Shown here: positions 3-63,758 of the stretch, piece after piece
How positions within the stretch are numbered: position 1 is the stretch's first letter
How the letters are laid out: each line of letters starts with the position of its first letter
IMG/VR virus record: IMGVR_UViG_3300044615_000494
DNA length: 64,000 nt
Source: a virus
Reading direction: 5' to 3' (one strand)
Notes under the pieces: model-generated
What the model was told of the DNA's origin: nothing
The model's input: the letters and a program-made list of their open reading frames with translations, nothing else
The model's database searches: none
Translations under genes and position numbers: made by a program

Positions 3-3000
3 TTCACCTGCAGTACCATTTGAGGTATTTGCAACAGGAGCAGTACTCCAAACTACAGTGTTTGCATTGATGACAGGTAATGCAACAAACGTTCCGTTAC
101 CATTCAATACATTACTTACATTACCATCTAAGTTTGTTGCTACGATATTACCAAATGCACTTGAACCGTTAGCAAAGTTGATTGCTACTGTATTACCGGG
201 TAGTGTTAAGTTACCACTTTGGTCAAATGTCCAATCAGAATAAGTTCCTGGTGTAACTGTAGGTACACTCAACGTCAAACCATTGCTGCCGTCGTCACCT
301 ATAACAACATCATTTGGTAAGACTATATCGCCAGTATTTACAAACGACCAAGTCGCAGTAGTGTTACTACTATCGCTAACTATCGTCACATTACCATGAG
401 CATATAGATTTGCGTTGGAATCGCCGATTAGACTTAATCCCGTGATATTTCCACTATCATTTGCTTCAAGTGTTATGCTTACGTTAGCAATAACGCTTGT
501 GGTGTCTGGCAGAGTTAAGTTACCATCAATACCAAATTTCCATTGTGCTGTATTACCAGCATTGTCATCACTATTGATAACAATATTACCTGTATTTGCT
601 AACTTAACAAAGAGGTTATCACTACCTAAAAACAACTCAGTTTGATACAAGTTGCCACTAGTCAAGTGAATATGATCGCCGTCACCCGCTGTAGGATAAA
701 CTAACAATTTTTGATTAGTAATTGAACCACTACCGTGTGGGTTCAGTGTAATAGTATTACCGGGATTGCCACTTGGAGTAAATCCTTCACTGTAGATAGA
801 ACCACCTGCCGGTAATGTTAAGTTGCCGTCTGTACCAAATACCCAACTACTTGTATTACCGGTGTTAGCAAGATTGGTAGTCAATGTCATATTAGCATCA
901 GTTGCCATCTCGCCGGTATCAGCGTAAAAAACTATCTTGTCGCCACTGAACCCAGACAAGTTTAAGTAGTCTGCTTGTATAGCAAGATTAGCAGGACCTG
1001 CTAATGAAACATCTGTAGATTGTATAGTAGGAGTCGAGCCACCAAAGATATTTAAGTATGGATCAGTATTACCTGCTACGTCACGTGGGAAGTTCAAGTT
1101 ACCATTTTCGTCAAATGTCCAACGAAGGGCTATACCATCACTTTCTTTTGTGTTTTCAATGTAGACTTGAGGCTTATCTATTAGATTATCTTTGAACGAT
1201 ACGTTTAGACGAGAAATCGCAGTATTAGATCCTGTGATACTATCTTCTACATATAGATCCCATACACCTGCTGTTTGGTATTCTACTGTTTTGACATTGG
1301 CAAATGTTGTTGTAAATGTGAGTGTGTCAGAACTTATGTTGCCATCATTACCAAATGTCCAAGCCTTTCCGTTACTATGAATGACTGCTTGATTGTTTGC
1401 GCCTGATGTAATCTCAAACGCAGTATTTTCACCGCCTAAGAATATATTGGCTGCTGGATCATCAATGTTACTGAACGCATATGCACGTAAGTGAATATGA
1501 CCAGGAGCCGTTGGATCCAATACTAATACTTGACTGTTGTAGTTAGCATCTGGTGTCAATGTCATTGTGCTGACATTTGGAAGTGTTGGGTCTAAACTAC
1601 TGTTAGCAATACTGTAAATTACGCTATTACCGTTTGGTAATACTAAGTTACCGTTAGCAGTAAAGTTCCAAATATTAGCACTGGGTCCGACAGCACCGGT
1701 TAATACTACAACATCTCCTGCGCCACCGCTTGGACTGTTTATGTAGATTGCTGATAAAGCACTTGCGTTACTGATATCATCTATCCATTGTAGTACAGCA
1801 CTACCGTTACCTTGACTGACCACACCAAATGGTGTGTTACTTGCTAATATAGCATCAGCACCAAATATACTTCCTATTACTACGTTACCACTTGGCAATG
1901 TCAATAAGCCATCTGTTCCAAATGTCCAAGTACTTGTGCTATTCGCTGTGATAGTCACATTGCCATCAACAGTTGCGATATCAAAATTACTATTACCATT
2001 TGCTATCGGTAGTGATGCGATACCAGACGGACCTGTTGCACCTGTATCACCTTGTGGACCAGTAGCACCAGTCGCGCCATCACTTCCGTTAGTACCTGCT
2101 GGGCCAGTGGCACCTGTTGCTCCATCACTTCCGTTAGAGCCAGCTGGACCAGTAGCACCTACAGCGCCTACAGCACCTTCTTCTGCCATTACGCTCCAGC
2201 GAACTGGATCATCTGGTGGCGCACTACCTGAATTACCATCGCCTATCTTGATGTATGAACTACCGGCATATGATACAACATCTCGTCCGCCGACATATGT
2301 TGTTGGTATAGGTTGCCAAGCACCCTGCCATACGAAACCTGGACCTGATGCGCCTGTTGCTCCATCACTTCCATTAGTACCGGCTGAGCCTGTTGCGCCC
2401 GTAGCGCCATCAACACCTGCTGTGCCTGTAGCACCAGTGGCGCCATCACTTCCGTTACTACCTGCTGGACCTGTAGCACCTGTAGCGCCGAACCCACCTG
2501 CTGACACCCACGTGCCATCGCCGGCAAGAACACTACTCACATTACCATCAAGATTAATATTTGCTATATTACCAATAGTACCTATGTTACCATTTGTGAC
2601 TTCGATATTATCAACAACTAATGTATTTCCGTTCGCTGTGAGTACAGCATTGCCTAATGTAATTGTGTTACCTGTTAACTGATCAAACAGAGTGACAGGT
2701 GCTCTAGTCAACGTAAACAAGTATATAAAAACATTACTTCCCGGAGCACTATCTACTGGAATATTAAAGTCAACATAACCAGATACAGGAGTTGTTGTTG
2801 ATATTGTATTTGTAACTGTCAATACAGTATTTGCAGGTGCACCACCTGTCAATAATTTAAATGAATCGTTTATTTTTAAAGATTCAAATATAGGTATGAA
2901 CACAGAATTGTCATTTGTTCTTATATACAATTCACTTGCAGTTGTCCACTCTACGAATGATATCCCTCCGATTCCTTCGCCACCGTCAATTAGTTGAGAA

Positions 3001-3920
3001 GTAGATAATTGACCAGAGTCAGATACACTGAGTGCTATGTCACCTAAATGTATTGTACTGTTGGCTAACCAGATATCTTTCCAACGATTTGTAGTATTAC
3101 CTAGATCATATGTAACGTTACTGATTGGATTCAAATTCGATAACACGCTTGTACCAACGCTCAAATAATCCATGTCAACTCTAGTGACTGTCATTACTCC
3201 ATCAGCAGGATTGTATTGTAGATTATCGTCAGCATCATTATGTAATGTAGTGTCACCGGGATCAGTAGTTAATACAATGTGGTAACTATAATTGTTGTTG
3301 ACTGCTTCTACTTCAACATTAGTAGCAGTACCTATAAAGTAATTTGCTGTGATATTACCTGCATTGCTGATGTTGAATCCATTAGCATCTACATTGGCAG
3401 TAAATGTATTATTAAACGCACCGGTAGCACCAGTCTCACCGGTCGCTCCTGTAGCACCTATAGTTGATGCGGGACCAGGTGGTCCTATAGGACCTGTCGC
3501 GCCTTCAGGGCCTGTTGCACCAGTAGCACCGTCATTACCGATCACACCGGTAGCACCTACCTGATCTACCCATCCTAAACTGCCATTACCGAACGTAGCA
3601 AGAACTTGACCTGCTGTACCACCTAACATAACAAAGTTGTTGGGGTAACCTACGTTTGTAGTTCCTACAACCGTCAATCCTGTTAATGTACCTACAGTAG
3701 TGATATTTGGCTGTGATGCGTTGATTACATTATATGCAAGATTTGCTATATCTGCGCTAGCAAAAAGATTACCACTCTCTCCTAAAATAAAGTTAGCAAG
3801 AGTCGCCACTGTGACTTTATCTGTGATGAACGTTCCGTTAGTACTAACGATAGGCATCAAGGCTTGTGACGTTAAGTTGCCATTGATGTTTGGAAGTTGT
3901 GATATTTTTATATTTGCCAT
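3..3920 (-). CDS. Long tail-fibre/receptor-binding-like protein with collagen-like segments, a CBM5/12-like module and repeated W-x-F-xxx-G-x-L-x-LP motifs; 3' end truncated by the window edge (>1306 aa)
   Basis: Hand translation from ATG at 3920 (MANIKISQLPNINGNL...). Frame spot-checked near 3, 1980 and 2700 with no stop seen. G-A-T/G-P-x runs near 3410-3560 and 2020-2500; WQGAW...DVVSY...RW module; 8 WxF repeats. Absent from the ORF track because no stop lies in the window. Confidence 0.85.
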   Translation of the reverse strand, partial: MANIKISQLPNINGNLTSQALMPIVSTNGTFITDKVTVATLANFILGESGNLFASADIANLAYNVINASQPNITTVGTLTGLTVVGTTNVGYPNNFVMLGGTAGQVLATFGNGSLGWVDQVGATGVIGNDGATGATGPEGATGPIGPPGPASTIGATGATGETGATGAFNNTFTANVDANGFNISNAGNITANYFIGTATNVEVEAVNNNYSYHIVLTTDPGDTTLHNDADDNLQYNPADGVMTVTRVDMDYLSVGTSVLSNLNPISNVTYDLGNTTNRWKDIWLANSTIHLGDIALSVSDSGQLSTSQLIDGGEGIGGISFVEWTTASELYIRTNDNSVFIPIFESLKINDSFKLLTGGAPANTVLTVTNTISTTTPVSGYVDFNIPVDSAPGSNVFIYLFTLTRAPVTLFDQLTGNTITLGNAVLTANGNTLVVDNIEVTNGNIGTIGNIANINLDGNVSSVLAGDGTWVSAGGFGATGATGPAGSNGSDGATGATGTAGVDGATGATGSAGTNGSDGATGASGPGFVWQGAWQPIPTTYVGGRDVVSYAGSSYIKIGDGNSGSAPPDDPVRWSVMAEEGAVGAVGATGPAGSNGSDGATGATGPAGTNGSDGATGATGPQGDTGATGPSGIASLPIANGNSNFDIATVDGNVTITANSTSTWTFGTDGLLTLPSGNVVIGSIFGADAILASNTPFGVVSQGNGSAVLQWIDDISNASALSAIYINSPSGGAGDVVVLTGAVGPSANIWNFTANGNLVLPNGNSVIYSIANSSLDPTLPNVSTMTLTPDANYNSQVLVLDPTAPGHIHLRAYAFSNIDDPAANIFLGGENTAFEITSGANNQAVIHSNGKAWTFGNDGNISSDTLTFTTTFANVKTVEYQTAGVWDLYVEDSITGSNTAISRLNVSFKDNLIDKPQVYIENTKESDGIALRWTFDENGNLNFPRDVAGNTDPYLNIFGGSTPTIQSTDVSLAGPANLAIQADYLNLSGFSGDKIVFYADTGEMATDANMTLTTNLANTGNTSSWVFGTDGNLTLPAGGSIYSEGFTPSGNPGNTITLNPHGSGSITNQKLLVYPTAGDGDHIHLTSGNLYQTELFLGSDNLFVKLANTGNIVINSDDNAGNTAQWKFGIDGNLTLPDTTSVIANVSITLEANDSGNITGLSLIGDSNANLYAHGNVTIVSDSSNTTATWSFVNTGDIVLPNDVVIGDDGSNGLTLSVPTVTPGTYSDWTFDQSGNLTLPGNTVAINFANGSSAFGNIVATNLDGNVSNVLNGNGTFVALPVINANTVVWSTAPVANTSNGTAGE

Positions 3921-20561: not shown

Positions 20562-21686
20562 TTATTTCTTATCTACTAAAAAATCAACCATTTCGGGAAA
20601 AGTATTCTTAAAGTTTAATTTACGAAAACCATCGTGCCTCACTAATCTATATCTAAACGTATCAAAGTGTTTGCTGTCGTCTTCAGTATTCAACAGCAAG
20701 ATGAACGGGCTTAGATCAAAACGGCAATTCTCTAATCGATTTATGATGAATTGTTTAGCGTCTTCTCTCCATACAGTAGGTCTTAAGTGAACTGGGTTAT
20801 GTACCCTGCCTAGATAAGGCAACCCTAATCCTATGTCATCACACCATTCTACTAACTCATTTAGATACGCAATATTATATGCGCTGACTGTAGTAGAAAC
20901 ACCTAGTTTGATACTGCTACTGTTTCTAAGTTCTATATATTTTTTTATGTTAGATAGCACTTCTTCCCATACTGCAGGATACCTGATATATTCAAATTTA
21001 TCAGCCACACCATCTATGCTCAACTGCAATTCTACTTCGTTGAAGTGGCTCCATATCTCTAACCATTCATCATCAGGAAACTTAGTGCAGTTTGTTGTAT
21101 AATGAAGGCTGATATCTTTAGCAGAGTTATCATTTATATACATGCGTAACAACTCTTTTTGTTGCTTGACACCACTCAGTAAAGGCTCACCGCCCGGTAT
21201 ATCAAGATGAATCAGATTGGGTGTCTTATCTTTAAAACTCTGTACGAAATCTTCTTTGTAAAAATGATTAGGTTTGACATCCTTACCTAAAAGTATCTTC
21301 CATTCTTGTTGCCATTTACTTGATGCTGATGGGTCGCAGGTTATACAACTCAGATTACATGTGTTTCCGAACGCTACACTAGCGGTGACGAAACCTTTAT
21401 CCTCTGATAATAATGAGCCCCAACGTTCATGGTCTTGAACACGCTTGCTACGTATATCGTTAGCCTCTTCGATCTTACAACGTTCACAACCCTTAGGCCA
21501 TTTTCCTTCTTTGAAATCTCGTTTTACTTCTTTTAGTGTGGGGCTATTGATATATTCATCTATAGATGATGAATTGATGTTGCTAGGTCTGTTGGGATAT
21601 AGAGAACTTTTAAACTTACAGCAAGGAGACATCTCTCCTTGCGGAGAGATGTCTATGTTAGTCCATGGTAATGAACAATAGGGCAT
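20562..21686 (-). CDS. Radical SAM protein with N-terminal SPASM/twitch-like Cys cluster
   Basis: CSLPW...PCC...C..C..EE, then CNLSCITC and GGEP. Confidence 0.9.
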   Translation of the reverse strand: MPYCSLPWTNIDISPQGEMSPCCKFKSSLYPNRPSNINSSSIDEYINSPTLKEVKRDFKEGKWPKGCERCKIEEANDIRSKRVQDHERWGSLLSEDKGFVTASVAFGNTCNLSCITCDPSASSKWQQEWKILLGKDVKPNHFYKEDFVQSFKDKTPNLIHLDIPGGEPLLSGVKQQKELLRMYINDNSAKDISLHYTTNCTKFPDDEWLEIWSHFNEVELQLSIDGVADKFEYIRYPAVWEEVLSNIKKYIELRNSSSIKLGVSTTVSAYNIAYLNELVEWCDDIGLGLPYLGRVHNPVHLRPTVWREDAKQFIINRLENCRFDLSPFILLLNTEDDSKHFDTFRYRLVRHDGFRKLNFKNTFPEMVDFLVDKK

Positions 21687-21693
21687 CAACTAC

Positions 21694-28565: not shown

Positions 28566-29978
28566 TTAGTCTGTGACTTTGAAAGAAAGAGCCTGGCTCA
28601 TGTCAGCCGTGCTTAGTTTAGTATATAGTGACACATTACCGTCAACTTTACCTGGCCACAACACTTTGAATACAAGTTTGCCGCCAACAACTCTAGTGAA
28701 AATTTGCATGAAGTTTTCATCTAGTAGTTCAAGAACCGTTTCTCTGAAGCCCGGAATCAATCCATCGTTGATGATTTTTACTAATTCTTTGGTCATGAAA
28801 TATACGACACTGCCGCCCGCTGTGCCTTTGCCCGGCTTCATAAAAGGTTCTTGTGTGAATTTTTTGAACTTGGCAGGGATAGGAGTAGTACCCTTCATCT
28901 TTATATTGGCGAGTACTTTGTCTACGTCATCGTTGCTGAACGGCATTAGTTTTCTTAGATAGTCAGGTATAGCATCTGGATAATGTTGTGATACCCAGTT
29001 CAAGCCCACGAATCCTTGTTTCACAGTAGAAGTAGAATTCATAGTACTGATGAAATCAAGACCGTTGCCGGGCTTAATCTTTCCCTTACGTTTTTCAACA
29101 CTTGACTTTAATCCACTCATTGCTGGAGCGGCACCGGTCGCAGTCTTACCTACGCCACCTTTACTACTGATCATGATAGTATGACCAGTCTGTGCGTTCT
29201 GTACGCCGTAACTGTCTGCGAGACTTGCGTTCTGCTCACCGGGGAAGATCAATAATAAATTATCTAAATTCTGAGACTTCAAGAATTTTAAGAATGCTTC
29301 CTTCTTGGGGAACTCTGCAACGTCTTTGACCATTGCCAATATGCCTAGATACTCGCCAGCATCGATAGCCATAGTCTTTTGTGTTCGTTCATCATATTGC
29401 TTGACCGAAGGATTTTGACCCTCGTTGATTTCTTTAGCAGCCTGCTTGATAGCCGCACCCAAATCTCCTGCTTTATCTAATGTAGGGTTGGACATGATCA
29501 CATCATATAACTTACCTGCAGGGATTTCTTTATGTGCGTCTAATGCGTCTTGTATCGCTTGGTCTGTGGTTACAACTTCTTTTTTCTTACCCTTGATCGC
29601 AGCCTTAGGATTTGTAGCGATGCCGATACCTATAGGCTGTACGTTGACTGATTGTGTCGCTTGACCAGTAGCCTTTTGTAGATCGGCCTTTTCAAATTTT
29701 TTAGTAGACATCAAGCCATGATCTTTGATTTTTACTTGTATGTCAGGGGCAGCAAACATTGGATTCTTTAAAAGAGCCTGCACAGTTTTTGTGACGACAG
29801 GTTCAAGTCTTTCGCCTTCACCTTCTTCAGGATAATACTCGTTACCTGCTTTATCTACGAAAGGTGTACCTGAGTGCAACTTACTGATAAAGGCGCTGGG
29901 TCTCCAAGTCAAATGTCTGGGATCAAACAATGCACTGGAATCTAGTGACTTTTCTGTTAAAAATTCTTTTGCTCGCAT
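28566..29978 (-). CDS. Hypothetical late protein (470 aa), possibly PD-(D/E)XK nuclease-like
   Basis: MRAKEFLTE start 5 nt after TAAATA; LADS...IMISSKG resembles a PD-(D/E)XK core. Confidence 0.6.
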   Translation of the reverse strand: MRAKEFLTEKSLDSSALFDPRHLTWRPSAFISKLHSGTPFVDKAGNEYYPEEGEGERLEPVVTKTVQALLKNPMFAAPDIQVKIKDHGLMSTKKFEKADLQKATGQATQSVNVQPIGIGIATNPKAAIKGKKKEVVTTDQAIQDALDAHKEIPAGKLYDVIMSNPTLDKAGDLGAAIKQAAKEINEGQNPSVKQYDERTQKTMAIDAGEYLGILAMVKDVAEFPKKEAFLKFLKSQNLDNLLLIFPGEQNASLADSYGVQNAQTGHTIMISSKGGVGKTATGAAPAMSGLKSSVEKRKGKIKPGNGLDFISTMNSTSTVKQGFVGLNWVSQHYPDAIPDYLRKLMPFSNDDVDKVLANIKMKGTTPIPAKFKKFTQEPFMKPGKGTAGGSVVYFMTKELVKIINDGLIPGFRETVLELLDENFMQIFTRVVGGKLVFKVLWPGKVDGNVSLYTKLSTADMSQALSFKVTD

Positions 29979-58911: not shown

Positions 58912-59769
58912 TTATGTTCCCCATTCGTTCTTAAACAATGGTACTTGCAGTCTATCGCTGTACCTCAAACCATTCTTCATAGCAAAGTTTGCTACTTGTC
59001 TATTATTAAGACTGTACACACTTTCTACACCGCCTACGGGCATGACATACACATTACCTGTAAAACCTTCACTGCGATAAAGTTCTGTGACTTCTAATAC
59101 TTCGTCCATATCTTCTTGACTTGCGATAACAAACTTAAGATATACATGACCTGATTCTTGATATTGTAAAACAACATCAGGTCTGATCGCACGTTCACGC
59201 TTTTCACCACTAACACTGAGTTTTGCGCTTACGCTAAACGTGATACTATCATAACTGCGACTGCTGAACGGATCACCCTCAGCCCAATCATATAAAAAGT
59301 CTACAAGTTCAGGCTTTAGTTTCTGACTACCGTTAGTCTCAAACGTGATCTCTTTAAGATTTTTCATGAAGGGATGACTGAGAAGTTTAGGATACATCTT
59401 CTGCCATCCTAACAGTGGCTCACCGCCTGTGATGACTAAGTGTTCGTCTCGCCACTCTTTGAAGGGGAGGATATCTTTGATTGAATCAGCGATGCCATCA
59501 ACTGAGACACGCGGACTAAGATGCTTGAACCTAGGATCCCAACTAGCATAACTGTCACATCCGGTACTAACCAGTGGTAAATCTCTATAAGATTTATATA
59601 ACTTTGCATCGACAGCATGACGTTCATTAGTTTTTTCTCCTCTGGGCATACCGAAACCATCGCAAGTGAAGTTACAGCCGAACGTTCTTAGAAAGACTGA
59701 AGGCACGCCCATGTAGCGACCTTCGCCTTGAATACTGTAGAATAGTTCACTTATCTTGATTGAGTTCAT
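58912..59769 (-). CDS. queE: 7-carboxy-7-deazaguanine synthase QueE
   Basis: SELFYSIQGEG..G.PSVF.RT.GCNF.C...CD, ITGGEPL, ETNGS and K. Confidence 0.9.
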   Translation of the reverse strand: MNSIKISELFYSIQGEGRYMGVPSVFLRTFGCNFTCDGFGMPRGEKTNERHAVDAKLYKSYRDLPLVSTGCDSYASWDPRFKHLSPRVSVDGIADSIKDILPFKEWRDEHLVITGGEPLLGWQKMYPKLLSHPFMKNLKEITFETNGSQKLKPELVDFLYDWAEGDPFSSRSYDSITFSVSAKLSVSGEKRERAIRPDVVLQYQESGHVYLKFVIASQEDMDEVLEVTELYRSEGFTGNVYVMPVGGVESVYSLNNRQVANFAMKNGLRYSDRLQVPLFKNEWGT

Positions 59770-60157
59770 TTAAATACCTTATTAATTCTTTATCTGTAGG
59801 TTTCACACTGTAGTTCTGTTTAAAGAATATCTCATAACTATCACTACCGTATTTACCAATACCATAGAGTATATTAGCATTTATTTTGTCCCAAGTCAAG
59901 TAATCACGGCTCATACCACGCAACCTTTTTTCCCTGATATTATACATACCAAGAGGCTTGATGATATCGATCACTTGTTCTGGTGTACTATTTAGGAGAC
60001 TTCTTGGGTTTGGAAACTTTTTTAGGAACTTTGGAAGCACGTACTTTACTGGCTTTCTTCCCGTTTGGTTCAGCATGATCACTCCTACCATGTGTTCCCA
60101 TTCGTTCTTTATCTGTTGCTGAACCATTAGATCGTCTCTTAGTGCTTTTACCTTCAC
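59747..60157 (-). CDS. Minimal HhH-GPD DNA glycosylase, MBD4-like
   Basis: W...V..I.LNQT, F..KFP, PLG...R, LYGIGKYGSDSYEIF and PTD; GGGAG RBS before GTG. Confidence 0.85.
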   Translation of the reverse strand: MKVKALRDDLMVQQQIKNEWEHMVGVIMLNQTGRKPVKYVLPKFLKKFPNPRSLLNSTPEQVIDIIKPLGMYNIREKRLRGMSRDYLTWDKINANILYGIGKYGSDSYEIFFKQNYSVKPTDKELIRYLNELNQDK

Positions 60158-60326
60158 TTTGCTTCTCCCTGTATCTCAACACGCCATCTACTATGCCATA
60201 TTCAGTAGTCTCTGTGACCAATCGCCAACCGTCAAAAACTACTATTTTTTCAGTGGTTTCACGCTCTAAAAATTGCTTGAATTCTGATAGGCTATTATAC
60301 TTTAATTTTTTAGGTATATACATCAT
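59988..60326 (-). CDS. Hypothetical protein; 3' end overlaps the glycosylase gene by 170 nt
   Basis: ATGA coupling; first ~55 aa look genuine, tail is probably overlap-driven. Confidence 0.5.
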   Translation of the reverse strand: MMYIPKKLKYNSLSEFKQFLERETTEKIVVFDGWRLVTETTEYGIVDGVLRYREKQSEGKSTKRRSNGSATDKERMGTHGRSDHAEPNGKKASKVRASKVPKKVSKPKKSPK

Positions 60327-60589
60327 TGAAACTTGAGTTTGTACCAATTCAGTTCAGCATCAGAATATAAGTATATCCTAGTTCTATGATTGTCAGTCAA
60401 AAAAGCCCAGGTATATTTTTGTTTAGGATTTAAAAATTTTAATTCTCTACCCGGGCCAAATACTTGCCAGCACCATTCACGTATCGTACAAAAATCATGA
60501 CCATCTTTATGAGGGTGGACGAACTCTAAGCAGTACCCAAAGTTCGCACCACCGGCAAATCTACGATCTAATTTTTGTATGATTATCAA
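60323..60589 (-). CDS. Hypothetical protein
   Basis: F...REWCW..FGP...W motif; probable TTG start. Confidence 0.6.
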   Translation of the reverse strand: MIIIQKLDRRFAGGANFGYCLEFVHPHKDGHDFCTIREWCWQVFGPGRELKFLNPKQKYTWAFLTDNHRTRIYLYSDAELNWYKLKFQ

Positions 60590-60590
60590 A

Positions 60591-61115
60591 TTACCACCAG
60601 TCTTCCCAAGGGAACACACACCATTCGGGATTCTCGGCTTTGTTGATCGCCAGGCCAACAAAGTCTGTCTCAAATTCGCTTGCTTGATTTTCGATCAATA
60701 CAGCAAACCTGACATTCTTATGCCAAACACTAGCCCATGCTGTTTGTTCTTTAGGTAAGCAACCGCCTTGCCAATCGCTAACAATATTTTTAAATGTATT
60801 GCCAGTGTCATTGATGTCGTCAACAATCAAGATATTCTTGCGCATAGAAACATCCCAGCGACTCTTATATGTCTCTTGCTCTTCAGATGGAACAGTGCCA
60901 AATGCGTCCTCTGCCATCCATAGATTAGACTCAGCAGGATCTAATGCATAGAAAGGAATGTTTAGGTAATGACTAAGCATCACGCCAGGAATCAATCCTC
61001 CCCTAGTCAAACCTACAATATAGTCAGGTCTGTAGTCGGCAGTATACATCTGACGCACGATTTCTAGAACCCCGCCCTTGACGAATTCATCTGTGTAATA
61101 CATTTGTTTATCCAT
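60591..61115 (-). CDS. Type I phosphoribosyltransferase (xanthine/guanine PRT-like)
   Basis: IVGLTRGGLIP, ILIVDDINDTGNT (PRPP loop) and terminal FPWE. Confidence 0.9.
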   Translation of the reverse strand: MDKQMYYTDEFVKGGVLEIVRQMYTADYRPDYIVGLTRGGLIPGVMLSHYLNIPFYALDPAESNLWMAEDAFGTVPSEEQETYKSRWDVSMRKNILIVDDINDTGNTFKNIVSDWQGGCLPKEQTAWASVWHKNVRFAVLIENQASEFETDFVGLAINKAENPEWCVFPWEDWW

Positions 61116-61117
61116 AA

Positions 61118-61309
61118 TTACCAATGCCTCATTACGTTTGCTATGATGAATAGACATGTTATCACATGTAACACTACCCATGAAGTTTTTAGGAACAATG
61201 CGATACGGGCTTCACGCAAAGTAAGTACAGGGACTCTAGGGCGATCCTCGTCGGTCTCACCCATTAGATGCCCTGTTGCTCTAGCCCAAATTTTTACTAG
61301 ACTGTTCAT
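61118..61309 (-). CDS. Small membrane protein
   Basis: IWARATGH..G.TD...hydrophobic C-terminus; ATGA coupling to queD. Confidence 0.7.
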   Translation of the reverse strand: MNSLVKIWARATGHLMGETDEDRPRVPVLTLREARIALFLKTSWVVLHVITCLFIIANVMRHW

Positions 61310-61755
61310 GCTTCGTAAATTGCGCTGTTTGCACCATGTTCGGCACATTCTACACGCACACAATAACAACGATTGTTAGATTTCTCGCGAATTAAGTTAT
61401 CAGCATAATTAAAAGCATGTTCAGCAAATTTTTCTGCGCCCACACCATTAAAATATGTAAGTTTTGCCAACCCCAATTCTTCTAAATGTTGAAAATCTGC
61501 AACGTGCGGGTCTGCTGTATCTAAACAAACCTTATGATCAAAACTGTCTTCTAACCATTTCTTTAAATCTTTAAGACCCCCGAAATCTACAGCCCAGTTT
61601 TTATCATCTAATGTCTCACATCCAAAAGTAAACTTGAATGATAAACTATAGCCATGCAATAAATGACAATGACTATGCCCTGCATTGGGCTGTCTAAAGA
61701 CTGCCGATAAACCTATGTTGTGTCCGTATGTTTTTGTTGAATAGTACTTTGCCAT
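61306..61755 (-). CDS. queD: 6-carboxytetrahydropterin synthase QueD
   Basis: FRQ..A.HSHCHLLHGY, VDFGGLK, FDH and E..E. Confidence 0.92.
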   Translation of the reverse strand: MAKYYSTKTYGHNIGLSAVFRQPNAGHSHCHLLHGYSLSFKFTFGCETLDDKNWAVDFGGLKDLKKWLEDSFDHKVCLDTADPHVADFQHLEELGLAKLTYFNGVGAEKFAEHAFNYADNLIREKSNNRCYCVRVECAEHGANSAIYEA

Positions 61756-61832
61756 CTCTAGTCTCCTTTACTAATGAGCAAGTTTGATGGCGGCAGAATT
61801 TATAAATCGGGATGACGCCAAGACCGATGTGA
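61756..61832 (-). promoter_or_regulatory. Candidate structured cis-regulatory RNA (H-type pseudoknot plus anti-SD) upstream of queD
   Basis: AUCGG/CCGAU and UGGCG/CGCCA interleaved; CUUGCU before AAAGGAG. Confidence 0.55.
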
Positions 61833-62000
61833 TTATACGCTTTTTACTTCGTATTGTTCGCTAATTTTAGTAGTCAATGTTTCCCATAATGGCTCTAGTG
61901 CATTACGCGGATCCAACTCTACTTCTTGATCAGTGATACAAGATACATCATAATTGACGATAACCTTATCACCTTTGTTATTCTCAAATGTTAACTTCAT
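61833..62000 (-). CDS. Small hypothetical protein (55 aa; not in ORF track)
   Basis: MKLTFENNKGDKV...; GGAG RBS; ATGA coupling. Confidence 0.6.
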   Translation of the reverse strand: MKLTFENNKGDKVIVNYDVSCITDQEVELDPRNALEPLWETLTTKISEQYEVKSV

Positions 62001-62209
62001 ATCCATCTCCTAACTATCACTGTTCCATATCTGTACATATGTGTCTCACAGCCTATTCTGTCAGTAACACTGTGTACTAATTGTATCATCTTTGCGCTGT
62101 TTCCGCAAATGATTTCTAATGGGAATTCGCCCTGATTCATCAATATAAAGTTCTCTACCATAGGTTCGACCTCACTATGTCTGACACCGTGTAGGTCTAA
62201 CTGATTCAT
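61997..62209 (-). CDS. Smr/MutS2-like small domain protein
   Basis: LDLHG.......V..FI....II.G.S motif. Confidence 0.75.
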   Translation of the reverse strand: MNQLDLHGVRHSEVEPMVENFILMNQGEFPLEIICGNSAKMIQLVHSVTDRIGCETHMYRYGTVIVRRWI

Positions 62210-62682
62210 GGCTTATCAGAGTACCTTTTTTGATTCTCTGCTTCCCATACACGCTCACGCAAGTTAGTGCTACTGAAACTATGATCGCGGCTATTAAACA
62301 CTAATTCAATATTACGCTTCTCGCAGATAGCACGACCAGTAAATTCACTTTGCATATACTCTACACCTAATATACGAACATCAAGGGGTAGTGTTAGCAA
62401 AATATCTTCAAGGTCTTTTTCACTATTATAAACTACGATTTCGTCAACGAATCTATTTGCACTAAGTTGAATCTGTCTTTCTACCAGGCTTTGTATGGGA
62501 GCATTCTTTTGAGGTCTGTCCCAACTCGCATTGTTTTGTAAACCTGCGATTAGATAATCGCAATGATTCTTTGCTTCTGCAAGCATAGCAACATGACCTG
62601 CATGTAACAAATCGAATTGGCTGAACGTGATACCTATCTTCAACCCTTTATCTTTTAATTCTTTTATTTTATTGAATATCAT
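62206..62682 (-). CDS. Cytidylyltransferase (TagD/RfaE-like HIGH family)
   Basis: FDLLHAGH, LIAGL, ER...L...FVDE and SST. Confidence 0.9.
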   Translation of the reverse strand: MIFNKIKELKDKGLKIGITFSQFDLLHAGHVAMLAEAKNHCDYLIAGLQNNASWDRPQKNAPIQSLVERQIQLSANRFVDEIVVYNSEKDLEDILLTLPLDVRILGVEYMQSEFTGRAICEKRNIELVFNSRDHSFSSTNLRERVWEAENQKRYSDKP

Positions 62683-62915
62683 CTTTTTAATTCACTCCAA
62701 AATTGTTTCTTATGTTGCTCTTCAAGCCAAACATCTTCATCAGTGAATGTAGGTTGTCTTTTGAGCATTTCCTCTAAAAGAAATTTGATCTCATAGAGTT
62801 CTTTTTTAGTCTGCCAAGATGTCCATCCGTCATTATAAGGGCTACAGATTTCTCCATGAGCCTTAATCAATTGCATTTTAATGCTATCTGGCTCTATTGG
62901 TTTCCTGTATCCCAT
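62679..62915 (-). CDS. Conserved hypothetical phage protein
   Basis: SPYNDGWT....K.EL. Confidence 0.7.
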   Translation of the reverse strand: MGYRKPIEPDSIKMQLIKAHGEICSPYNDGWTSWQTKKELYEIKFLLEEMLKRQPTFTDEDVWLEEQHKKQFWSELKR

Positions 62916-63081
62916 TTGCGACCTTATTAGTATCAATGATGATGTCCATTGCTTGACGTAGTAACTGTTCGATAGTCACAAGTTTCTGTTCAGTTTCCCA
63001 AACTTTCTTGTGCTGTAGTTCTAATCTAGCCTCTAATTCACATACTTTAGAGAATAGTTGATCGTTAAAGTCTCCCATCAC
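62884..63081 (-). CDS. Hypothetical coiled-coil protein
   Basis: ATGA coupling to folE. Confidence 0.6.
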   Translation of the reverse strand: MMGDFNDQLFSKVCELEARLELQHKKVWETEQKLVTIEQLLRQAMDIIIDTNKVANGIQETNRAR

Positions 63082-63758
63082 TTACAGCCCTTCATTGCGA
63101 TATTCAAAAACTCAGCACGGGCAGCAGGATCGTTCTTGAATCCACCACCAAGACGGCTTGTGACTGTGCTACTACCTGTATCCTCTACACCACGACTCTT
63201 CACACAATAATGTTGTGCATCAATCATTACAGCAACATCTTCTGTGCCTAGGATGAATTGTAATGTGTGGAAGATTTGTTCTGTGAGGCGTTCTTGAATC
63301 TGTGGACGCTTGCTGAAGTATTCAACGATTCTGTTGATCTTGCTGAGTCCCAATACTTTATCCTTAGGTACATATGCTACTGTAGCAAGACCATCGATGA
63401 CAACAAAGTGATGTTCGCAGTTGCTTTGTACATTGACATTACGCTCAACGACCATCTCGTTATACTTCATCTTGTTATCGACCGTAGTACACTTAGGGAA
63501 CGAATCATAATCTAGTCCCCAGAAAATCTCATTGACATACATTTTAGCGACACGCTTGGGTGTATCGATCAAACTGTCATCGGTCAAGTCTAATCCTAAA
63601 GCCCTCATGATCTCAGCAAAGTTACCTTCGATGATATCAATCTGTTCTTTACGATCTAGATTGCGCTTTTTGATTGGGGTTTCAACACCCATTTTGACTA
63701 GGTGTTCATGAACCTGTTTGCCAAGTTCTGGGTCTGTTTTTGTCTTATTGTATGACAT
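63078..63758 (-). CDS. folE: GTP cyclohydrolase I (type IA)
   Basis: DTP.RVAKM, SNCEHH, GLSKI.RIV..F..RPQIQERLT, H.CV..RGV and R.EF. Confidence 0.97.
   Translation of the reverse strand: MSYNKTKTDPELGKQVHEHLVKMGVETPIKKRNLDRKEQIDIIEGNFAEIMRALGLDLTDDSLIDTPKRVAKMYVNEIFWGLDYDSFPKCTTVDNKMKYNEMVVERNVNVQSNCEHHFVVIDGLATVAYVPKDKVLGLSKINRIVEYFSKRPQIQERLTEQIFHTLQFILGTEDVAVMIDAQHYCVKSRGVEDTGSSTVTSRLGGGFKNDPAARAEFLNIAMKGCK

Follow-up and report, generated by a model that had tools for sequence, protein, structure and literature searches.

PreQ1-I riboswitches are small H-type pseudoknots with a 5-bp helix P1, a second helix P2 that runs from the loop to the 3' tail, and an A-rich loop L3, and the known preQ1 riboswitches are OFF switches, which act either via a terminator or via Shine-Dalgarno (SD) nucleotides that are included in P2 (PMC10639078). 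The phage leader described here is pseudoknotted like preQ1-II and preQ1-III, two classes that sense a 7-deazaguanine and control the translation of que-related genes. Both of these are larger, contain more helices and bury the SD motif in the ligand-bound fold. The competition between an aptamer and a structure that hides the initiation site, which is proposed below, has counterparts in guanidine-III, a pseudoknot acting as an ON switch, and in the V. vulnificus add adenine riboswitch, a translational ON switch; however, both of these have unrelated sequences and another gene context, and neither was matched in Rfam. The leader of gene 32 of the T-even phages offers a likeness by description only, i.e., an H-type pseudoknot in a phage 5' leader that governs translation, but that element nucleates the binding of gp32 and has no competing sequestor strand. 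Few riboswitches are encoded by phages, and no case is known in which one of them controls a pathway of DNA modification.

The leader analyzed here precedes queD in an uncultured jumbo phage. The window, that is, the whole stretch of 64,000 nucleotides that was analyzed, is part of a 100,327-bp IMG/VR virus record that is rated 27% complete and contains phage genes including those for a tail fibre and a DNA ligase. All genes surrounding the leader are encoded on the minus strand. The gene that would be under regulation, queD (61306-61755), encodes a 6-carboxy-tetrahydropterin synthase of 149 aa (Pfam PTPS, 1.6e-14; PHROG QueD-like, 1.2e-39). On the 5' side of the leader lie a 57-aa open reading frame that ends at 61833, a cytidylyltransferase-like gene and folE (63078-63758), and queD is followed by a phosphoribosyltransferase gene (60591-61181), an HhH-GPD glycosylase-like reading frame and queE (58912-59769). 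The glycosylase-like frame (136 aa, 59747-60157; Pfam 5.3e-9) is thus located within the deazaguanine cluster, immediately 5' of queE. A second radical-SAM protein (375 aa, 20562-21689), weakly similar to QueE-like PHROGs, is encoded at a distance from the cluster.

Together, folE, queD, queE and the phosphoribosyltransferase gene constitute a deazaguanine module (58912-63758 in the window). QueC was not found in ten related records, five of which are 91-100% complete, and the Pfam TGT model detected no DpdA in five records (G000-G004), a model that divergent DpdA families may evade. Phages with FolE, QueD and QueE but without QueC have been proposed to make 7-carboxy-7-deazaguanine (CDG), or 7-deazaguanine through DpdL, in their DNA (PMC10516641). 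The end product of the present module may be CDG, 7-deazaguanine, or the product of a nucleotide-level route via the phosphoribosyltransferase. In some lineages a second reading frame of the PTPS (T-fold) family overlaps the end of queD (L012:3456-4019, G003:C1:128010-128357); its product is a candidate DpdL-like CDG decarboxylase, which would then be translated together with queD.

The gap between the upstream stop codon (ending at 61833) and the ATG of queD (61755-61753, minus strand) is exactly 77 nt long. The first-pass annotation had picked out this gap as a GC-rich structured leader in AT-rich DNA, with a P1 helix AUCGG/CCGAU and an H-type pairing of the loop motif UGGCG with a downstream CGCCA, and all of these elements were recovered: the G+C content is 50% in the pseudoknot core compared with about 39% in the window, and both helices, at 61828-61824/61810-61806 and 61820-61816/61792-61788, respectively, covary. 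The complete H-type pseudoknot, composed of P1 and the loop-to-tail helix P2, occupies about 45 nt (61786-61829, minus strand). The P1 strands AUCGG (61824-61828) and CCGAU (61806-61810) flank a 13-nt loop, which starts with L1, UCUU (61820-61823; consensus N-C-U-U with an invariant C), a loop that carries between 0 and 7 additional nucleotides in relatives. The 5' strand of P2 (61813-61819) consists of GGCG (61819-61816), an invariant U (61815) that faces a C, and a CA extension (61814-61813); its 3' strand (61789-61795) consists of a UG extension (61795-61794), the facing C (61793) and CGCC (61792-61789). The core may widen by one pair outside GGCG/CGCC, between U 61820 and A 61788. L2 is the dinucleotide UC (61811-61812), the C of which (61811) abuts the 5' side of the P1 3' strand, is unpaired, and is invariant in 79 sequences, and L3 (61796-61805) is an A-rich tail, UUAUAAAUUC, that closes with an invariant A-N-U-C. 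Across the family, P1 has 5 bp, P2 has 4-7 bp plus a 2-bp extension past the U/C mismatch, and L2 has 2-3 nt.

Nested folding of the single leader, which is blind to the pseudoknot, yielded a minimum free energy (MFE) of -16.4 kcal/mol that is not significant (z = 0.18), and thus one sequence alone is no proof of the structure. The relevant evidence comes from comparison. With the QueD protein as query, IMG/VR yielded 80 loci with 78-85% identity, out of 594 confirmed relatives, and a second search seeded with a QueD of 71% identity contributed more motif variants. The upstream regions of these QueD relatives contain the same motif with evident compensating changes. They were assembled into a core alignment of 52 columns, with gaps essentially confined to L1 and L3, in two versions, A2 with 59 sequences and A3 with 79 sequences from IMG/VR phage contigs, 73 of which are distinct. 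In A2, 92.2% of the cells are paired, compared with 70.0% in column shuffles and 34-49% when the partners were slid by 1-3 columns, and the covariation score of 0.453 (0.133 in shuffles) was reached by none of 500 shuffles. The values for the more diverse A3 are 83.7% paired, versus 61.0% in shuffles and 36-50% in the slid controls. The covariation test on phage queD leaders that had been proposed at the outset thus turned out positive, with double changes in 11 of the 15 pairs among the 73 distinct sequences.

The compensating changes are distributed over both helices. In P1, pair 4-30 occurs as A-U (32), C-G (32) and U-A (9) in A3 and is never broken; pair 5-29, which is invariant in A2, is G-C in 67 sequences and C-G in 6, the latter being AGACG/CGUCU variants; and pair 6-28 is an invariant G-C. 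The pairs of the P2 core occur in as many as five standard types apiece. Beyond the conserved U/C mismatch, which is replaced by U-A in four sequences, P2 extends by two base pairs, a C-G and then an A-U (61813/61795), and this outer pair (24-43) is A-U in 53 and G-C in 20 of the distinct sequences, again without a broken case. Fully complementary versions include nine different P1 helices and 19 different 4-bp P2 cores. The G-U pairs place the structure on the sense strand of queD, and covariation and conservation together demonstrate that the pseudoknot is real and under selection, with two helices that are conserved through compensating base changes. Ten positions are invariant, namely G6 and C28, which form the top pair of P1, C8 in L1, U22 and C23 in P2, the unpaired C27, A39, U41 and C42, which close L3, and G44 on the 3' side of P2, and the unpaired ones among them suggest a binding pocket. 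A divergent sub-family (L089:1946-1989, L095, L096, L134, L139 and L147) has a P1 of AGACG/CGUCU, an additional bulged base in P2, UCG/CGA or UCA/UGA extensions, and U-A in place of the U/C mismatch. With the covariance model, R1, this sub-family scores just 9-16 bits, and therefore the motif family is broader than R1 finds.

In the window, the R1 match spans 61786-61829 and scores 53.2 bits (E = 1.8e-12). A second copy was absent from the window, from the whole 100-kb record and from five large relatives; a 9-bit match at 29032-29067 and a 12-bit match in G004 were dismissed as chance. Four phage genomes of 222-357 kb that are 96-100% complete contain exactly one copy apiece, directly 5' of queD, and the same is true of a 163-kb record that is 46% complete. 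Among the 80 closest QueD loci, the motif is present in 76 (74 complete matches and two cut by the contig end), and three have a promoter and a short leader alone. The sole constant partner is queD itself; the downstream genes vary by lineage and include queE and genes for a phosphoribosyltransferase, UvdE, a second PTPS-family protein and a KdsA-like enzyme.

Several of these loci have features of their own. Genes for UvdE-type UV endonucleases recur closely 3' of queD (L007:3598-4632, L063:4336-5421, L061:4407-5423). At L008, the phosphoribosyltransferase gene is located 5' rather than 3' of the motif, and QueD (2821-3447) has a 59-aa N-terminal extension, with the pseudoknot and the sequestor adjoining the new start codon. 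The MAG-bin contigs L088-L092 encode phage-like QueD proteins with 60-75% identity, and one of them, L088 (PBPT01000016.1, 335 kb, binned as Neomarinimicrobiota), which has a tRNA gene beside queD, resembles a jumbo phage that was binned with a bacterium.

Outside the IMG/VR phage contigs, the searches recovered no copy. MAG contigs with QueD proteins of 47-75% identity gave no R1 match, and in one of them, L089, a divergent AGACG-type version was recognized by eye. A scan of 302 sampled bacterial genomes from two classes, run with strict filters and no positive-control genome, found no match. The best QueD of a cultured phage, that of Synechococcus phage BUCT-ZZ01, is 55% identical and lacks the leader. 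This freshwater cyanophage (L175; ON615601.1, 68014-73457) carries overlapping genes for QueE, a xanthine-guanine phosphoribosyltransferase, a hypothetical protein, QueD and FolE, and might serve as a laboratory model of the pathway, though not of the RNA.

A sigma-70-like promoter of the form TTGACN-17-TAnnnT is present in 25 of 58 distinct upstream regions and mostly ends 7-8 nt 5' of P1, which places the knot at the extreme 5' end of the mRNA. In the window, only a TATAAT (61832-61837, minus strand) is left, a possible -10 box that was read from the sequence, covers the stop codon of the 57-aa reading frame and is homologous to the promoter GTAAAAGCGTATAAT of L043. As it is only 3 nt away from P1, it is uncertain where the RNA begins here, and the leader may be transcribed from a promoter further upstream. 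A scan of the leader for terminators found none.

The region between P2 and the start codon contains a predicted sequestor of the translation initiation site. In the MFE structures, GCCAUC (61786-61791), whose GCC is common to the 3' strand of P2, pairs with GAUGGC (61751-61756), which includes the start codon of queD, and the GAG of the SD motif AGGAG (61763-61767) pairs with CUC (61778-61776) inside the same hairpin. Pairing of the region of the P2 3' strand with the AUG or the SD motif is predicted in 85 of 86 distinct platforms, against a high background of 69% when this strand was shuffled, and the mean MFE of the platforms is -8.1 kcal/mol compared with -5.0 kcal/mol for shuffled sequences. 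The sequences between P2 and the ATG represent at least five unrelated designs, each of which shares the P2 3' strand with a helix that includes the start codon or the SD motif (GCCAUUG/CAAUGGC; CCCAUAA/UUAUGGG; CCUAUG/CAUAGG plus UGCC/GGCA; ACUCC/GGAGU; CCUAU/AUAGG). The flanks of the start codon covary with the upstream strand, with C-G, U-A or A-U at position -1 and G-C or C-G at +5, the latter changes going along with Ala or Gly second codons; this signal, which also involves -2, comes from few positions.

Because the 3' strand of P2 is shared, the pseudoknot and the sequestor are mutually exclusive, and this exclusion predicts a translational ON switch. The mean duplex energy is -8.0 kcal/mol for the sequestor and -5.7 kcal/mol for P2, values that exclude pseudoknot loop costs and tertiary contacts, and a sequestor that is stronger than P2 would fit a default-off state. 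The predicted platform is of the kind expected for a riboswitch, i.e., mutually exclusive structures that share a strand of the putative aptamer, with modest covariation. RNAalifold offers a further pairing, between YUCU in L3 (including the next U) and GGAG of the SD motif, both sides of which are invariant. In the aptamer, the U of YUCU pairs with A24, with perfect covariation, and therefore the pairing between L3 and the SD motif competes with the aptamer; it is a possible second sequestor at most.

In this respect the outcome departs from the first-pass annotation, which had ascribed preQ1-like logic to the leader, with a coupling of the pseudoknot to the SD motif and an alternative pairing of GGUCUU with GAGACU over the latter. 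The alternative pairing did not survive comparison, since the nucleotide after GG changes between A, U and C with no matching change in the partner strand, and most lineages lack GACU. A coupling of the pseudoknot to translation initiation was retained, but its predicted route is the strand shared by P2 and the sequestor, and the predicted polarity is ON, the opposite of preQ1. The view that the leader is a riboswitch candidate has thus become stronger, and it is now a strong candidate, although its predicted polarity is reversed and its predicted coupling is not the one first proposed.

The relation to the preQ1-I class (RF00522; B. subtilis queC, T. tengcongensis) deserves particular attention. 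Both RNAs have the H-type topology, a 5-bp P1, a short pyrimidine L1, an A-rich L3 and an unpaired C directly before the 3' strand of P1, and both are found in the 5' UTR of a gene of the queuosine/7-deazaguanine pathway. By analogy, the invariant C 61811 would occupy the site of the ligand-pairing C of preQ1-I. In contrast to preQ1-I, P2 of the phage RNA has 6-9 bp with an internal U/C mismatch (3-4 bp in preQ1-I), L2 has 2-3 nt rather than 4-6, L3 includes the additional invariant A-N-U-C before P2, the RNA is predicted to be an ON switch with the SD motif outside P2 and no terminator, and the motif was found only in contigs of uncultured phages, which lack queC. Rfam 15 scans, at permissive thresholds, of the leader (121 nt), of 6 kb around it, of ten related loci and of six MAG loci returned only unrelated chance matches and one tRNA, and preQ1-I, preQ1-II (RF01054) and preQ1-III (RF02680) had no match in the leader at E<=10, in the 6 kb or in the ten related loci, which agrees with the initial impression that the leader belongs to none of the known riboswitch classes. 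Literature text searches found no description of the motif. Judged by sequence and predicted fold, the phage RNA resembles a preQ1-I-type pseudoknot aptamer but is probably a separate family, and it has the appearance common to riboswitches, with a conserved and structured putative aptamer in the 5' UTR, covarying helices and invariant loop bases.

The explanation that is favored here, with a probability of roughly 0.6, is that the leader of queD acts in cis as an RNA switch in which a pseudoknot aptamer turns translation on. The first 45 or so nucleotides of the leader would fold into the H-type pseudoknot aptamer. Without a stabilizing ligand, the stronger sequestor hairpin would bury the start codon and part of the SD motif, and QueD would remain untranslated; a ligand would lock the pseudoknot, which would capture the shared strand and open the initiation site so that QueD could be made. 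Several points speak against this model: an ON switch is unusual for a biosynthetic gene, the long P2 could be stable without a ligand, and the limits noted above for the sequestor test, the duplex energies and the 5' end of the RNA count against it as well.

Two alternatives dispense with a small molecule. The pseudoknot might be the operator of a protein, e.g., a phage translational regulator, QueD itself or ribosomal protein S1, in the manner of the T-even gene 32 leader; pseudoknotted phage translational operators do exist, a long and stable P2 requires no small ligand, and the constant linkage to queD alone is compatible with autoregulation. However, the ten invariant nucleotides cluster in the junction and loops of a knot of 45 nt and are arranged as in a known small-molecule aptamer, the competing-sequestor design is typical of riboswitches, and the loci examined offer no candidate protein whose presence tracks that of the motif, so that a protein operator appears rather unlikely. 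Alternatively, the element might act independently of any ligand as a 5' stabilizer, a translational enhancer or a folding timer that captures the anti-start strand co-transcriptionally, since a P2 of 6-9 bp could form unaided and the pseudoknot is transcribed ahead of the start region. This is improbable, because the anti-start strand is kept in five platform designs, which would be pointless if it were always neutralized, and because the invariant unpaired bases suggest a pocket.

A further alternative is a divergent preQ1-I-type OFF riboswitch that would bind the product (preQ1, preQ0 or CDG) and repress QueD, for example with the bound fold or the L3 YUCU blocking the ribosome. Feedback repression would be the customary arrangement, YUCU and the GGAG of the SD motif are complementary, and the topology, the C before the P1 3' strand, the A-rich L3 and the que context are shared with preQ1-I (PMC10639078). 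Nevertheless, such an OFF switch is unlikely, given that the Rfam preQ1 models stay silent, the SD motif lies 10-40 nt past P2 and thus outside the pseudoknot, the L3:SD pairing would form at the expense of the aptamer, and in 85 of the 86 platforms the strand shared with the sequestor points to ON polarity. The unremarkable folding energy of the single sequence would be in line with chance or with a feature of the DNA, such as a promoter or an operator, and no RNA structure at all, but 11 pairs with compensatory changes, strand-specific G-U pairs and the far lower values of the slid controls effectively refute this explanation.

If the leader is a translational ON switch, the most probable ligand is a small molecule that presents a guanine-like pairing face. 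This speculation starts from the invariant C, which suggests such a face, a feature that is common to all candidates, i.e., CDG, 7-deazaguanine, preQ0, preQ1, a pterin intermediate of the dihydroneopterin triphosphate type and a guanine compound. Equally speculatively, an ON switch at the committing enzyme would agree less well with product feedback than with feed-forward activation by a precursor, either dihydroneopterin triphosphate or a guanine compound. A more far-reaching version, which is tentative and on balance doubtful, is that the RNA represents a new, phage-confined riboswitch class, the first known example that governs DNA hypermodification, with a ligand not known for any other riboswitch (CDG, 7-deazaguanine or dihydroneopterin triphosphate) that turns on QueD as the step committing GTP-derived pterin to 7-deazaguanine synthesis.

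The importance of the element lies in the combination of its small size and very strong covariation support with its occurrence in aquatic phages that are uncultured and number in the hundreds, jumbo phages among them, and in a predicted wiring opposite to that of all known preQ1 riboswitches. Should a metabolite bind, the RNA would be an additional aptamer, perhaps with a ligand that is itself new, and would provide a compact ON-switch part for synthetic biology. Metabolite binding would also show how phages time or meter the diversion of GTP into 7-deazaguanine for the anti-restriction modification of their DNA.
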